Source: a virus (Duplodnaviria > Caudoviricetes). Taken from it: a stretch of DNA of 64,000 nt. Shown here piece by piece: positions 7,415-40,622 of the stretch. Within the stretch, counting starts at the first letter, position 1, and every line of letters begins with the position of its first letter. The position numbers were made by a program, and so were the translations under genes. The stretch lies in IMG/VR virus record IMGVR_UViG_3300014204_000116, positions 1-64,000 of that record, one strand, 5' to 3'. Under the pieces are notes generated by a model. The model was not told where the DNA came from and ran no database searches. It was given only the letters and a program-made list of their open reading frames with translations.

Positions 7415-9362
7415 TTTTCCACGAGAGTTTGGTCTCGCCTTGGCCAGTTTTCTGCGCAACCAGGACGTAATCGGCGTAGCTGGCAACCTCGGGATGGTGA
7501 TCCACCACGAATATGAGGATGCCCAGGCGGTGCGCGGTTTCTTTGAGGTAGGTTAGGATGCTGCGCCTGATAACGGTATCCTGCGAGCTTAGGATCTCAT
7601 CGTACCACCTGAATCCGATTCTTTTGCTGACCGACCCGACCTCTGAAAGCGTTTCTGCAATAATGAGGTTTGTCAGACCGGATTCACCCTTGGAGCTTCC
7701 CTCGATACGCTTAGAGCCTATTTTGTTATTAACGCGGATGACAAGCTCTGATGACGTGCCCTTGCCACTAGCCAGTTGCCGGGATGTATCGTACGAGACC
7801 TCAATCGTCCCACCGGTCATCAGATTGCTGATGCGGCGTGAAATTTCGTTTAGCGGGGCTATCGCTTCCGACAGGATCAGGTTGGGTATGCCAGTGGGGC
7901 TGAAGGCTTCTGTCCAATAGCCGACAACTTTAACCACTTCCTGCGCCTCAGCCAGCTTTGCGGAGGTCTCTTCCACGTCTGTAGTGATCTTCGCACTTTG
8001 GTCTTTTCGTTCGGTAACAACGGCTCCATAGCGTTCTATTCCAGATCGATCCGGTCCTCGGCTGAGGGCTTGAAGGCGCAATTGCGCCTGGTTGATGGCA
8101 CTGTTCGACAAGTTGATGTCCCGCTCATTTTCTTCGTACTCATAACTAAGGGTGCTCGATTGCGCCGGAGTGCGAAGCTTGCTTATTTGCTCCTCGATAG
8201 CCCTTACTTGGTTGCGGATATCACCAGCCGATTTGTCTACATCCTGGATTTTAACCACCACCCCATCGTAGGATTTTTTGAATGATACGACGGCCAACTC
8301 CTGCTTTTTAATCTCATCTGCACTATGGGCTTTATCCCACGGCTTGCCACACGTGGGGCAATTGTCGGGTATGGACCTCATTTCATCGAGCACTTTGACC
8401 TGGGCTTGCTGCGCCGTAAAAGCCTTGGCCTTTTTCTCCACGAGGTCATTCCGTTTAATTTGGAGCGTGCTGGCATCCGTGTTAAGCGCCAAACGTTTCT
8501 TTTCAAGCTGGGCATAGGCAGCGGCCCCCTCCACTTCTAACCGCTTCAACTCAGATTTAATGGCTGCCTGGCGGGCCTGCAATTTAGCAACATGATCCTG
8601 GCGGATGCTGAGGCGGTTCTGTACCTCGGTGCACTGCGCAGCAATTTTAGCCTCCTCTTCCGCTATTCTATCCTTTTCATCCTGTAGGGTACGCAATGCA
8701 GATTTTATTGCCTCTTCCAACCGTTCCTTTTCGCCTTTGAGCCAGTTCAACCTTGTCTCTTCAGATTCAGCATCTCGCTGGGCATTTCCCAGCATTTTTC
8801 GAGAATGCTCATTTATTTTATCCCAAGATGGCTGTTGTAGCGCTGCCATGAGCAGGCCGACTGAATCACGCTCTGACTGCTTGTTAAAGCGCAGCCGATC
8901 CCCGTCAATGTAGACGGTCCATTCTGCAAGCTCCGGTGTGACAGAGATCGCAGACGCAAGTTCTTGCCGGGTTTCTCGGACGTAGCCTCGCTCAATGATG
9001 CCCTGATCATCGAATTTAAACCGCAGGCCTTCGCCCGTGGGGCTGATTTCCTTGCATTTATGTCCGAGTTCTACCACCAAAGGCTTTTGGCTTAGGTCGG
9101 TTTCCACACGGACGTACATGTTTCCCTTTCCGTGCGTGCTGTAATGGCCCAAGTTCGTGTAGCGGCCATCTATACCAGTAAGCGTTCGGCAGAGGGCCTC
9201 CCCCAAGGCTGTTTTTCCGGCCCCGACCGAGGACATTTTACCCGCAGATGCCAAGTTGTCACCGTTTACGAGGACGAGCCCCTGCTTGGGAAATGTAAGT
9301 TCGGCTTGACGAATCGTCATCCAGTTGCGAATATGAACACGGCGTAGTTTAAGCTCGCTCAT
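7395..9362 (-). CDS. SbcC/Rad50-like (T4 gp46-like) recombination ATPase
   Basis: Walker A GAGKT, long coiled coil with central CPTCG zinc hook, signature S.GE, Walker B 'WYDE', H-loop 'VVDH'. Confidence 0.92.
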   Translation of the reverse strand: MSELKLRRVHIRNWMTIRQAELTFPKQGLVLVNGDNLASAGKMSSVGAGKTALGEALCRTLTGIDGRYTNLGHYSTHGKGNMYVRVETDLSQKPLVVELGHKCKEISPTGEGLRFKFDDQGIIERGYVRETRQELASAISVTPELAEWTVYIDGDRLRFNKQSERDSVGLLMAALQQPSWDKINEHSRKMLGNAQRDAESEETRLNWLKGEKERLEEAIKSALRTLQDEKDRIAEEEAKIAAQCTEVQNRLSIRQDHVAKLQARQAAIKSELKRLEVEGAAAYAQLEKKRLALNTDASTLQIKRNDLVEKKAKAFTAQQAQVKVLDEMRSIPDNCPTCGKPWDKAHSADEIKKQELAVVSFKKSYDGVVVKIQDVDKSAGDIRNQVRAIEEQISKLRTPAQSSTLSYEYEENERDINLSNSAINQAQLRLQALSRGPDRSGIERYGAVVTERKDQSAKITTDVEETSAKLAEAQEVVKVVGYWTEAFSPTGIPNLILSEAIAPLNEISRRISNLMTGGTIEVSYDTSRQLASGKGTSSELVIRVNNKIGSKRIEGSSKGESGLTNLIIAETLSEVGSVSKRIGFRWYDEILSSQDTVIRRSILTYLKETAHRLGILIFVVDHHPEVASYADYVLVAQKTGQGETKLSWKTNASFD

Positions 9363-14703: not shown

Positions 14704-14718
14704 GGTAGTTAATCCAGT

Positions 14719-36409: not shown

Positions 36410-37678
36410 ATGAACAAAGTTCGATTTCATGAGCCGGTAACACTCAGCTTTCGCAAGTCGGCGGGCGGCTCCACAATGACGTTTGACGCCCACAGGGATT
36501 GGATTATACCCAACGCCCAATTGGATCGAATCATGCAGGATGCGAATATCAAGGCCCGCACCTACAAAATCTCCAAAATTGACAACTTGATACCAAACTT
36601 CAACGTTAATGTCCCCAAAAAGCCAGGGGCCAATCGAGCGCTAGTTTACAACGGCAGCGGTGGCTACGGCGACCAGCTAATGACGTGGCCCCTGACACTC
36701 ATACTGACGCGTATGGGCTACGAAGTGCACATGATGGTAGATCCCGGAAATCAAATTTGTTGGTGGAATGTTCCGTGGGTCAAATCGGTGCATGTCGTTC
36801 CGATGCAAGATGAAGTGTTTCAAATGTTTGACCACCACATCATCTTCGATACGGCGTGCAACATGATGGAGCATCCGAATCATCCGCATCCACTGGATTT
36901 GATGCTGCGAAAAATCGGAATAGATCCCAGTACGGTGCCAGACAACCTTAAAGTAGTCCGACCACTATTCACATCGGGAGAAATGGCAGCTACTTTACCC
37001 TACCGGGAGCGGCAGCTTGCACTGTACCAGTTTGCGAGCGCCAATCCTGTGCGCAATCTTCCTGCACCTGATAGCGCTTTTATGCTGAGCCGCCTGAGCG
37101 AAACTTTTCCGCAGTACACGTGGATGGCGCTCTACGACGAGTTCATCCCCAAAGAGTACGTCCAATCGGTGATGGAGGACGTGGTTGACCCTGATACAAA
37201 GGAGGTCAAAAAAGACGAAAAGGGCAACGTTCTCAAAAAGGTAAAGTTTCCGAACTGCATAGTTTTGTTTTGCCCTAACCTGCGGGAGCTGTGGGCGATC
37301 ACATCCCAGGCCAAAATCGTTGTAGCCCCCGACAGTATGATGGTCCACGTGGCGGGTTCATTGGGAATCCCGTGCGTCGGCCTGTGGGGGCCTTATGATC
37401 CCCGAAGTCGTGTAAAATATTACCAAAAGCACTACCCTGTGTTCAATGTGTCAGCTTGCCCCCAGGCCCCGTGTTCGCATTATTTGGCTACATTTCCGAA
37501 GTACTGCCCGCCCAGAGCCGGTCGTAACGTTTGCGAAGTTATGGCTGCGATTACCCCGGAGCAGGTAATTGATGGTATTCACTCACTCGTGCCAGAATCA
37601 AAACTGCAACCGAAGATCTCAGCAGAAGAGCCTGTGTTTGACAAGCCACCGTCTGTGGATATAATCAAAGAGCCGTGA
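36410..37678 (+). CDS. GT9 (heptosyltransferase-like) glycosyltransferase
   Basis: GGYGD, 'VAPDS.MVH.A.SLGIP.VGLWGP', C-terminal Cys cluster then 'M.AITPEQV'. Confidence 0.85.
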   Translation: MNKVRFHEPVTLSFRKSAGGSTMTFDAHRDWIIPNAQLDRIMQDANIKARTYKISKIDNLIPNFNVNVPKKPGANRALVYNGSGGYGDQLMTWPLTLILTRMGYEVHMMVDPGNQICWWNVPWVKSVHVVPMQDEVFQMFDHHIIFDTACNMMEHPNHPHPLDLMLRKIGIDPSTVPDNLKVVRPLFTSGEMAATLPYRERQLALYQFASANPVRNLPAPDSAFMLSRLSETFPQYTWMALYDEFIPKEYVQSVMEDVVDPDTKEVKKDEKGNVLKKVKFPNCIVLFCPNLRELWAITSQAKIVVAPDSMMVHVAGSLGIPCVGLWGPYDPRSRVKYYQKHYPVFNVSACPQAPCSHYLATFPKYCPPRAGRNVCEVMAAITPEQVIDGIHSLVPESKLQPKISAEEPVFDKPPSVDIIKEP

Positions 37679-39501
37679 TTACACTGCTCGAAAAAAGCAT
37701 TTATCTGTACTTGGCAGGCCCTCCGAACGATCTGTATGATCTGTCGGATGCTTTGAAAATTCAGCATCCTCAGCGGGATAAAATTGACCTGTACCATTTG
37801 TGGAAGAGGACCAAAGGCGAAAAAGGATGGGATGGCACGGTTAAGCCCCTCAAAGTTGATCGCTCCGGCCACGAGGCGTCCATCCTTCGGGGTCACAAGA
37901 GCAGGGTTCTCACAACAATGGGTAAACTGGGCATAGAAGTAAGCCCAAACAGCAAGCTGATAACCTCCCCGTTCGCAGAACTGACATCAAACGACATCAA
38001 CCCAGATTGCATCGCGGGTGATTTTCCCCTGGATCATAATCAGATACACTGCATCTTAAAATGGCTCCAGAACGGAATGGGCATTGGCAAGATCGCCGTC
38101 AATGGGGGAAAAACGGCAACTTTCGCTGGCTTCGCGGCTACGCTAAAAAGTTACATGGAAGATGCGCGTTTTGTCTACATAACCGACCGCGAACGTCTAC
38201 AGTCCCAGGTTGGGGATGAGATGCCAAAATTCTTGCCCGGCTGGGGCATTTCTATCTTCGGGGGAGGAGGGCAGGACTACGAGGGAAAGGACATGGTTAT
38301 CTGCACCTTGGCCATGCTGCGGACGCACAAGAATGACCTGGAGGCCCTCGGGTGGTTTAACACTTTCAACGCGGTGTTGTTCGACGAATGCCACCACGCC
38401 AACGCCGACAGCGCCGAAGAACTGATGCTGAGGTTTGGTGGTGCTTTCTTCCGCATTGGCGCGTCGGATACGGCGAGGGAAAAGGATATATTAGCCCAAA
38501 ACCGGATCACGGGACTTCTCGGGCCTGTGCTCATGCAGGTCGATCAGGTGGAGCTTATCGGCCTGGGGAGAAGTGCACAACCCCACATTTACGTCATAGA
38601 CGATAAAAGCTGGACTGGCCGGTATGATTTGGTTCCTTACACGCCCCAAGTTGGGACTACAGCCTGGGCACTTTTGGACGGCCAAACTGAGATGACCCAA
38701 GGGATTTATAAAGGCCCCGTCATAGAGCTGGATGATCAGGGCAACCAGGTAGTGGTGGATAAACGCATCTTGGAGGGGGTTAAATTTGTAAAGGTAACGG
38801 AGCCCAAGACTGTGCCGGGTTTGCACCTTATCGAGGTCAATGGGGTAGACTATGAAATTAACTCGTCGTACTGCCTCCTTGAACGTTCTGTAGACAGATG
38901 TATCGTAAGATTCAAAGAGCGAAATGATTTAATCACGGAATGGTCTACATTTTTTGCAAAACAGGGCAAGCGCACGCTGGTTGTGGCTACCCGGCTAATG
39001 CACATTCTTATCCTGGAGAGCCTCATCTGCAACGCCTACGATCCCGACCTTGTGCGCACGCTGACCGGTGAAGACTCGGTAGGCACCAAAAATAAAACTT
39101 TCGAGTGGTTCAAGAAGACCAAGGGCGCAATCCTCATTACTTCACTGGTAAAAGAGGGCGTCAGCATAAACGAAATAGAAGCAGGCGTCGTGGCCGACTA
39201 CATCGGAGATGCCGAATTTGCCAACCAGATCGTGGGCCGTTTTCTCCGCCGAAAAAAAGAGGGGGAGAACGTAACTGAAATCGCCTGGTTTCTCGACCGT
39301 CAACAGCGCCGGTTTGAGCGGGGCTGCAAGTCGGTCATACAGCGCCTAAGCGAAGCGGAAAAGGGCTTTATTTTTTACCATCCACTCGTGCATCCTTCAG
39401 ACCTTTCGTCTGAACCTCGGGGATATCAGGTTTGGGATAGCCAGCACGAGGGGGAGTGGCGAAAAGACGAGGGCGAGCTTCCTGCACATATTTCTCTGTA
39501 G
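37675..39501 (+). CDS. SF2 DNA helicase (UvsW-like)
   Basis: NGGKT, DECHH, EGVSI, Q.VGR.LR motifs. Confidence 0.88.
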   Translation: MITLLEKSIYLYLAGPPNDLYDLSDALKIQHPQRDKIDLYHLWKRTKGEKGWDGTVKPLKVDRSGHEASILRGHKSRVLTTMGKLGIEVSPNSKLITSPFAELTSNDINPDCIAGDFPLDHNQIHCILKWLQNGMGIGKIAVNGGKTATFAGFAATLKSYMEDARFVYITDRERLQSQVGDEMPKFLPGWGISIFGGGGQDYEGKDMVICTLAMLRTHKNDLEALGWFNTFNAVLFDECHHANADSAEELMLRFGGAFFRIGASDTAREKDILAQNRITGLLGPVLMQVDQVELIGLGRSAQPHIYVIDDKSWTGRYDLVPYTPQVGTTAWALLDGQTEMTQGIYKGPVIELDDQGNQVVVDKRILEGVKFVKVTEPKTVPGLHLIEVNGVDYEINSSYCLLERSVDRCIVRFKERNDLITEWSTFFAKQGKRTLVVATRLMHILILESLICNAYDPDLVRTLTGEDSVGTKNKTFEWFKKTKGAILITSLVKEGVSINEIEAGVVADYIGDAEFANQIVGRFLRRKKEGENVTEIAWFLDRQQRRFERGCKSVIQRLSEAEKGFIFYHPLVHPSDLSSEPRGYQVWDSQHEGEWRKDEGELPAHISL

Positions 39502-39539
39502 ACTTCCTTTTTTCCCGTTCTAGGAGTAGAGCACTAAGC

Positions 39540-40296
39540 TCAATTTTACTCTGTATACATCTACATTATTTCACGCCAAACGCGGAGGGCGTCAGGCTCG
39601 GACCTGTTAAAGCCGCCGTCTTGCCGAATCCGACGATAAGAACGGCTGCCCTGGTACGGCAGGACACGTAACTGAAAAATTACATATCCGTTAAACAGCC
39701 AATGTTGGCAAGCCACAAGCTTGTTTCAGAAACACCGGTCGTTTGAGGACCACGCGGTCGGTGTAAAGCGCGAATGCCCGAAATAATAGTAGGCGCGAGT
39801 TGGCCCGGTCTGTTCAAACACACGGCGTGCCGTGGCCAAAGACAGACGCAGTGGAAAGAGGTTTTCACTGGAGTACAAGATCCGGCTCAGCCCGAAAAAT
39901 ATCAGGCTGTACCTTGAGGAGTGCGAGATCCCTCTCCCGACCTGCATCAAGGGGAGACTGGATATTTAGCCCCGTCGCCCCACGCTTGAGTATACTGTGT
40001 GGTTTGCATAAAGCCGCAGGTTGCAGCCTGCGAACTGAGCACAGATCCCTGTTCCTATTCGATTTATTTCCGGCAAAACAACACCTGAAGTGTGCCCTTT
40101 GTTAGCCCGGAATTTATCAAGTCTATCCAATTCTACCTAAAACTGTGTAGAAATGGTTAGAAATCTGATGTCACCGCCATTAGGGAGTGGTGAAGAGACG
40201 ACATAGGGGCTCGGTGTGCCCACAGGACAGCACACCCGACGCCCAGGGGCTAACCCCGTTCGGGAGAACATGTACACATGTGATGACATAAAATTC
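39540..40296 (+). ncRNA. Candidate large structured non-coding RNA (~750 nt)
   Basis: No credible ORF, more than 12 local stems, nested 5'-3' complementarity, GTTCT promoter-like motif at 39516. Strand inferred. Confidence 0.55.
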
Positions 40297-40298
40297 TC

Positions 40299-40327
40299 TT
40301 GCCATCTGCTTTGCATTTTGCTACACT
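40299..40327 (+). promoter_or_regulatory. Sigma70-like early promoter
   Basis: TTGCCA-N17-TACACT with an extended TG. Confidence 0.6.
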
Positions 40328-40346
40328 CCTCAGCATTGGAACGATT

Positions 40347-40622
40347 ATGAGCCATAAAGCAAAGCTGAAACTCAAACAACCCGGTGATAAATCGGTTAGC
40401 GTCCACATGGAATGGATAGTCCAAGGCACTGATTACACCATTGTGAGGCATGTGCCGAATGGTAGTGTAAATTCCAGTGCAGCCAACCAACGCCGGATCA
40501 ACTGGTATGTTTCCGGCCCCAACGAAGAGATCATTTCAGTTCCAGCCAACATCCATAAGCATGAGGCCTCCATAGCCAGGTGGCTGCTTTCAGCAAGAAA
40601 GGACGCACATGAAAAAGATTAA
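40347..40622 (+). CDS. Hypothetical protein
   Basis: Start refined to MSHKAK behind the promoter. Confidence 0.55.
   Translation: MSHKAKLKLKQPGDKSVSVHMEWIVQGTDYTIVRHVPNGSVNSSAANQRRINWYVSGPNEEIISVPANIHKHEASIARWLLSARKDAHEKD

Follow-up and report, generated by a model that had tools for sequence, protein, structure and literature searches.

What occupies the longest stretch without an evident gene in the genome of this phage? The window analyzed here covers the initial 64 kb of an IMG/VR virus record of 159,890 bases, which is rated 72% complete and whose genes suggest a distant T4-like jumbo phage. The stretch is a gap of 846 nt (39502–40346) between the stop codon of a helicase gene at 39501 and the ATG of a small open reading frame (ORF) at 40347. 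When ORFs are mapped greedily over the entire record, no other gap exceeds about 350 nt, the spurious ORFs that the map puts into this one aside, so an earlier sequence-only reading was right to call this the largest gap in a dense genome. That reading also proposed a novel, large, structured phage non-coding RNA on the plus strand, and its proposal is upheld by nucleotide homology without protein homology, by covariation, by recovery of held-out relatives and by the lack of a match in Rfam 15. That the locus is a real structured RNA gene is very probable. Our best explanation taken as a whole, in which we have somewhat better than even confidence, is that the gap is a structured non-coding RNA gene of about 750 nt that acts as a free folded RNA. 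The RNA would span roughly positions 39505–40260 of the plus strand, the strand of all of the RNA elements described below.

The gene directly upstream (37675–39501, plus strand) encodes a UvsW-like SF2 helicase (Pfam ResIII/Helicase_C; PHROG DNA helicase), whose closest solved relative is T4 UvsW (2OCA, E 2.4e-7); it is full length, and the length of its C-terminus is kept among relatives. A portal gene and a Hoc-like gene with an Ig domain also lie upstream of the element, and a gene of the T4_Y16D family is found near the locus in relatives. Downstream, a 91-codon ORF (40347–40622, plus strand) provides context; it is not conserved in relatives, belongs to no Pfam or PHROG family and has no tblastn match in the related loci. 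A sigma-70-like promoter of this small gene (40299–40327; 9 of 12 matches, a 17-nt spacer and a TG extension) lies outside the RNA. The last helicase codons (39452–39470) and the 3′ domain of the RNA (40183–40201) share a 19-nt direct repeat, identical at 17 of 19 positions and 731 nt apart, for which we estimate a chance probability of about 0.003 for the region.

The gap does not appear to encode a protein. Six ORFs of 62–117 codons lie inside or overlap it, and tblastn comparison of all six with the homologous loci gave no protein-level match (nothing below E 0.18), in agreement with the earlier judgement that there is no credible ORF. Likewise, the lengths of the indels in the gap alignments are not multiples of three. 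Two of the ORFs in the RNA locus, at 39800–40105 (plus strand, 101 codons) and 40137–40490 (minus strand, 117 codons), are spurious and without homologues, and one of the pair overlaps the next gene; in a relative (the contig of P0014) gene calling covered the equivalent region with a minus-strand ORF of 401 codons.

Homologues of the helicase are numerous and lie on contigs of up to about 250 kb. In each of the ten close-clade loci that were fetched (helicase 51–60% identical) the helicase is followed by a gene-free gap of 490–1060 nt, and the gene order is kept: an Ig-protein gene and a small gene on the minus strand, a glycosyltransferase-9-like gene and the helicase on the plus strand, then the gap. 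With the window included, the alignments draw on 11 loci (designated by L numbers below) that fall into two or three divergent subtypes. The helicase is the upstream neighbor of the element in 10 of the 11 loci; in L002 a 241-codon gene stands between the two. The search for homologues that the sequence-only reading had recommended was productive: nhmmer aligns the gap of the window with that of L002 over about 750 nt (E 1e-14), and from these two the chain of matches extends to L007, L011, L003/L004, L022 and L008. Taken with the tblastn results, these sequence comparisons show that the locus is conserved as nucleic acid and not as protein.

The genes on the 3′ side of the element are unrelated among relatives; among them are the 91-codon ORF of the window, an ORF of 870 codons and HNH endonucleases. 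In three loci (L008:7320–7775, L041:6303–6773 and L042:6321–6791) the RNA is followed directly by a gene for an HNH_3 homing endonuclease, and L002 has an uncalled and apparently degenerate HNH-like frame in the same place (about 8400–8620). The helicase gene itself is a frequent host of inteins, as indicated by the intein/Hint or LAGLIDADG homing-endonuclease domains in many long UvsW-like homologues of 750–1020 residues (P0012, P0016, P0018, P0028, P0030, P0040, P0076, P0086, P0092, P0106, P0108 and P0116).

The conserved core of the RNA spans 39688–39881. Its larger part is a four-way junction (39688–39807) in which a long-range helix, H1 (39698–39703 with 39799–39804), closes the junction and encloses H2 (39707–39725), H3 (39732–39764) and H4 (39769–39797). 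Next comes H5, a stem formed by 39808–39813 and 39842–39847 with an inner hairpin at 39821–39834, in which the letters have changed and the pairing has been kept in L002, L007 and L022. H6 (39849–39870) is a hairpin of 9 bp; at six of these pairs both partners have changed among six sequences, and the hairpin has been rewritten fully in L002. It is followed immediately by an unpaired 9-nt motif, GAGUMCRAG (39871–39879), that is invariant or nearly so in the window, L002, L007, L011, L022 and L003. H1, the best-supported helix, was absent from the sequence-only reading.

Support for the core comes from two alignments and two covariance models. In a MAFFT alignment of six sequences (A3), which is blind to structure, H1 is paired in 100% of the sequences and five of its six pairs are changed on both sides. 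Over this alignment as a whole 76.8% of cells are paired, against 34–36% when the 3′ partners are slid by 1–3 columns, and double-sided changes occur at 32 of 50 pairs against 6–12 in the slid controls; none of 500 shuffles reached any of the observed covariation measures. The corresponding values for a model-fitted alignment of 12 rows (A8), which leans toward the structure by construction, are 88.9% of cells paired (28–36% in slid controls) and double changes in 23 of 26 pairs. Because MAFFT misaligned the variable hairpins, the covariance models were seeded from four well-aligned sequences. The first model (R1, four sequences) recovered the held-out loci L007 (3e-10), L042 (3e-7) and L003 (1e-4), and with filters off also L004 (0.003); the second (R2, seven sequences) recovered the newly fetched L044 (3e-9). 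Every match to either model is on the helicase strand and inside the syntenic gap. The covariation among homologues that the earlier reading had named as a check is strong in the core, as the slid controls and shuffles attest.

On either side of the core lie further hairpins with varying degrees of conservation. At the 5′ edge of all 11 loci is a motif consisting of GTARAC, a spacer of 2–13 nt and GTTCT; in the window (39498–39521) it overlaps the helicase stop codon, and in L002, L003 and L004 it is clear of the upstream stop codon. A small hairpin follows (39529–39541; 4 bp with a 5-nt loop), with equivalents after the GTTCT motif in L003, L004 and L007, and in its place L008, L022, L041 and L042 have a different, GC hairpin. 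The leader at 39532–39571 is 72.5% A+T, within the top 0.3% of all 40-nt windows of the record; the gap reaches its highest A+T content here in the window, L003, L004 and L007, and elsewhere in the other loci. Then come a hairpin at 39581–39616 (39581–39584 with 39613–39616), kept with changed letters in L002, L007, L003 and L004; one at 39615–39646, whose stem has changed in letters and shifted in register and which carries a 9-nt motif (39633–39641) that is invariant in the window, L002 and L007 and nearly so in L003 and L004; and one at 39646–39665 (39650–39653 with 39660–39663, or a register shifted by four), where the same four relatives form a stem with other letters.

Beyond the core, the hairpin at 39888–39909 has a positional equivalent in all 11 loci, with partial covariation, and occupies the place where relatives have a small stem with a GNRA-like loop. 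A 6-bp hairpin at 39933–39957 is changed on both strands and still pairs in L002 and L007. The variable middle region (39960–40170) is alignable only to L002, with large gaps, and is absent or unrelated in the shorter relatives. The conserved 3′ domain (40171–40257), whose G-run motif, hairpin and second G-run recur in L002, L003, L004, L007 and L008, comprises in the window a hairpin at 40171–40193, a conserved G-run motif at 40201–40209, a hairpin at 40213–40236, a second G-run at 40243–40249 and a terminal hairpin at 40246–40257; the first two of these hairpins are rewritten in L002. In L007 a 30-nt unit containing the conserved 3′-domain hairpin is perfectly duplicated in tandem (about 7509–7568). 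Altogether, the comparison of relatives shows that the four-way-junction core, at least seven further hairpins and the 3′ domain have been kept by compensatory changes.

How do these elements compare with the stems proposed from the window alone? All of the listed stems are where they were said to be, and six have compensatory changes in relatives (39732–39764; 39808–39847 with its inner hairpin; 39849–39870; 39933–39957; 40171–40193; 40213–40236). For the stem at 39615–39646 compensatory changes were also found, with the register shifted; that at 40015–40032 is kept in part only; and those at 40068–40112 and 40131–40152 fall in the variable part, where they have no alignable counterpart. Three nested pairings proposed to join the two ends of the element are lost in L002, the sole relative alignable at both ends. 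By our estimate a region of this size would contain about 16 inverted repeats of ten nt with one mismatch by chance alone, and we have rejected the end-to-end closing helices as being at chance level and not kept in the closest relative. For the proposed crossing helix (39966/40246), L002 has a C-run/G-run pair near both sites, in an uncertain register.

The strand of the RNA was assessed in several ways. The folding z-score of the 757-nt region, which the sequence-only reading had suggested as a check, is −2.9 on the plus strand and −2.4 on the minus strand (20 shuffles each), and the raw energy of the whole region is lower on the minus strand (−274 versus −253). Because only the shuffle z-scores favor the plus strand over the 757 nt, the strand call rests on the conserved parts. 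There, all six cores fold better on the plus strand, by 5–16 kcal/mol, all four alignment folds favor it, and G-U pairs outnumber A-C pairs (33 versus 18, and 14 versus 4), which bears out the earlier plus-strand assignment from G-U pairing. When the covariation-supported helices are forced, the fold is 32 kcal/mol above the minimum-energy fold of the single sequence, and for this reason we do not give a full secondary structure.

The ends of the transcript are placed less exactly. No promoter was recognized upstream of the element on the plus strand, and the independent, middle-phase transcription proposed earlier is a conjecture. The conserved 5′-flank motif is a possible start signal or first RNA element. 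Its hexamer was considered as a promoter and rejected: the 7-mer that contains it, TGTAGAC, is present in 76 copies in 160 kb, a four-fold excess over the approximately 19.5 expected, mostly inside genes and on both strands, with several copies in repeated peptide modules at 76.5–89 kb. In the window and in most relatives the RNA locus has one copy at its 5′ edge; examples in the window are at 39497, 36379 (minus strand), 15741 and 43016. A T7-like promoter formed by the G-run motif of the 3′ domain was rejected as well, its heptamer being neither recurrent nor intergenic in the genome. At the other end, the terminal hairpin is not followed by a run of T residues, and there is thus no clear intrinsic terminator. 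The next gene has its own start signal, from which we take the RNA to end before about 40265. In L003, L004, L007 and L022 the next gene is preceded by a start-proximal motif, GTAGTTA, instead of a sigma-70-like promoter. Of the 33 copies of GTAGTTA, 23 are no more than 120 nt upstream of a start codon, 21 of these at 8–34 nt (examples in the window are at 14705, 22777, 32676, 44592, 45752 and 48000), and its placement suggests that it is probably a late-promoter or start-region signal of this phage group.

The element does not correspond to a catalogued RNA. At gathering thresholds the 64-kb window has no match in Rfam 15; when searched by E value, the region has only three matches, all at chance level and to unrelated families (E 0.67–9.6), and the eight homologous loci searched have none at E up to 5. 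No significant covariance-model match was found to GOLLD, ROOL, OLE, HEARO or any other Rfam 15 family. GOLLD and ROOL are among the Rfam 15 models. The novelty claimed for the RNA survives the Rfam comparison that had been named as its test, and the lack of a match makes this an uncatalogued RNA family. ARAGORN identifies no tRNA or tmRNA genes in the window and there is no match to an Rfam intron or ribozyme family, consistent with the earlier view that hallmarks of tmRNA and of group I and II introns are lacking. A literature search of full texts found no description of such an RNA.

The family is also narrowly distributed. The 160-kb record has one copy only. In a more distant helicase clade (L013–L036, about 44% identity) the gap is absent, a 360–436-codon ORF overlaps the helicase stop, and no locus gives a covariance-model match; the RNA thus appears to be confined to the closer helicase clade. 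IMG/VR yielded one further member only (L012); single-protein scans of it with the helicase and with a 238-codon downstream protein found nothing, and a three-block DNA pattern of the core found no further member there. Nucleotide searches of cultured phages and Escherichia coli genomes gave no match, nor did a helicase-profile scan of GTDB genomes. The three-block pattern has 23 matches in GTDB genomes, compared with about 17 estimated from its information content; model R2 confirmed none of them, and they are rejected as family members. Five such matches in Acidobacteriota share a conserved stretch, and the one that was read (L050) looks protein-coding. Judged on these searches, this is an uncatalogued single-copy RNA family of an uncultured clade of T4-like jumbo phages, with a UvsW-like helicase gene upstream.

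There are several published systems with which the element can be compared. It most resembles ROOL and GOLLD (PMC12286853) in being phage-encoded, 500–800 nt or more in length, rich in helices, non-coding and functionally unassigned, and it resembles GOLLD in combining a conserved portion with one that varies much more. It differs in that ROOL and GOLLD are often beside tRNA islands, whereas the window has no tRNA genes, the fixed neighbor here is a helicase gene, and the hosts appear to be those of Gram-negative-type jumbo phages. Assembly into a homo-oligomeric RNA-only cage is a further mark of ROOL and GOLLD. Phage RNA candidates mined from IMG/VR (PMC10690425) were likewise obtained by comparative analysis of phage intergenic regions in the same kind of data. 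The motifs in that catalogue are 29–151 nt long and each is present in at least three IMG/VR regions; the RNA described here is five times longer, though a sub-motif of it may be among them.

In the explanation that we favor, the RNA would be transcribed rightward, as a read-through extension of the helicase message or from a start close to the conserved 5′-flank motif, and would fold into a compact multi-domain particle in which the variable middle is a tolerated expansion. The folded RNA may act in its own right, alone or with protein, as ROOL and GOLLD are thought to do. The covarying multi-domain fold, unpaired motifs, GNRA-like loops, single copy, independence of neighbors and adjacent HNH genes fit a stand-alone RNA of the ROOL/GOLLD kind. 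By this analogy, that the RNA is a free folded particle rather than an agent of replication initiation is about an even proposition.

The foremost alternative is that the element is an R-loop origin of replication, with a structured pre-primer like the RNA II of ColE1, at a slot matching that of T4 oriF; we consider this rather doubtful. The transcript would hybridize to the DNA from which it was copied, cleavage would turn it into the primer of the leading strand, and the UvsW-like helicase would later remove the hybrid. The RNA II of ColE1/pMB1 is a structured pre-primer of several hundred nucleotides whose fold decides its action at the start of replication. The likeness is one of functional analogy only, and no antisense partner was found. 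That the conserved fold decides whether the pre-primer stays hybridized to its template, beside UvsW and at an oriF-equivalent origin, is a tentative suggestion and unlikely as it stands; if true, this would be the first structure-governed origin RNA of the ColE1 RNA II type in a T4-like phage.

The position of the element lends some support to an origin next to the helicase, which the earlier reading had named as its main alternative. In the T4 record the order is hoc and inh (both minus strand), segE and uvsW (both plus strand), oriF 881 nt past the uvsW stop, and then baseplate genes; here it is an Ig/Hoc-like gene and a 178-codon gene (both minus strand), a glycosyltransferase-like gene and the UvsW-like helicase (both plus strand), and then the element, which begins where the helicase gene stops and matches the oriF slot downstream of uvsW. 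The Hoc assignment rests on the Ig domain alone. T4 oriF and oriG consist of a promoter and an A+T-rich unwinding element, the transcript serves as primer, and UvsW unwinds the R-loops (PMC3016281). The element shares with oriF, also called ori(uvsY), its location just downstream of uvsW in a hoc-inh-x-uvsW neighborhood, an A+T-rich stretch, here 39532–39571 after the conserved 5′ motif, and a transcript as the presumed active species (PMC3016281). The 5′ motif, a candidate promoter at most, is followed by such a stretch in the window, L003, L004 and L007 and not in L008, L041 and L042, and the absence of the A+T-rich leader from several relatives counts against an origin, as does the lack of a distinct unwinding element after the 3′ end of the RNA. 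T4 oriF, in contrast, is a promoter and unwinding element of about 100 bp inside coding DNA that works without a conserved RNA fold, and its primer is transcribed toward uvsW, whereas the 750-nt covarying fold here runs away from the helicase. The GC skew, suggested earlier as a check, is similarly divided: the cumulative skew is flat or falling at 6–38 kb and rises almost monotonically from 38–44 kb to the end of the record, a sustained rise that an origin would account for, but one confounded with transcription, since the turn coincides with the switch to plus-strand genes at 36.3 kb in a record that is only 72% complete. No iterons were found.

A second alternative, which we consider improbable, is that the locus has no function as RNA and works as DNA, its hairpins acting in single-stranded or cruciform form (for example in recombination, in primosome assembly or as a structured origin). 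A hairpin in DNA is preserved by compensatory changes just as one in RNA is, a site beside a recombination/replication helicase would be fitting, and the element borders on an HNH endonuclease gene in L008, L041 and L042 and on a degenerate one in L002. Nonetheless, the strand asymmetry, in both the excess of G-U over A-C pairs and the greater stability of six cores on the plus strand, better fits an RNA read from one strand than cruciforms derived from a duplex, and a long-range helix closing a junction, unpaired motifs and GNRA-like loops are typical of folded RNA.

Equally improbable is a third alternative, that the element is a cis-acting part of an mRNA, serving the helicase message as a 3′ UTR or in its processing and stability, or the next gene as a regulatory leader. 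In 10 of 11 loci it does follow the helicase stop directly, and an independent promoter was not recognized. In L002, on the other hand, another gene separates helicase and element, and a multi-domain structure of 500–750 nt is far beyond the needs of known UTR elements. As for a riboswitch or other leader, there is no constant downstream gene among relatives: the downstream genes are unrelated and have their own start signals, so the RNA is not their leader. Finally, a remnant or unusual mobile self-splicing intron, or another ribozyme, associated with an HNH homing endonuclease is highly improbable: HNH genes are directly 3′ in four relatives and the inteins in the helicase gene of other relatives indicate that the locus attracts mobile elements, but no Rfam intron or ribozyme family matches even at E 5–10, no gene is interrupted (the helicase is complete, and in L002 a different gene lies upstream), and the window itself has no endonuclease gene.

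RNAs of at least 500 nt with conserved, intricate folds are rare, and most are ribozymes, the cores of ribonucleoproteins or, as recognized recently, self-assembling cages. A new 750-nt family beside a UvsW-like helicase is a concrete candidate for structural work. It bears also on the question, raised in T4, of what decides R-loop formation at origins (PMC3016281). More generally, it indicates that what looks ‘empty’ in the largest gap of such genomes is functional sequence, which gene callers fill with spurious ORFs.
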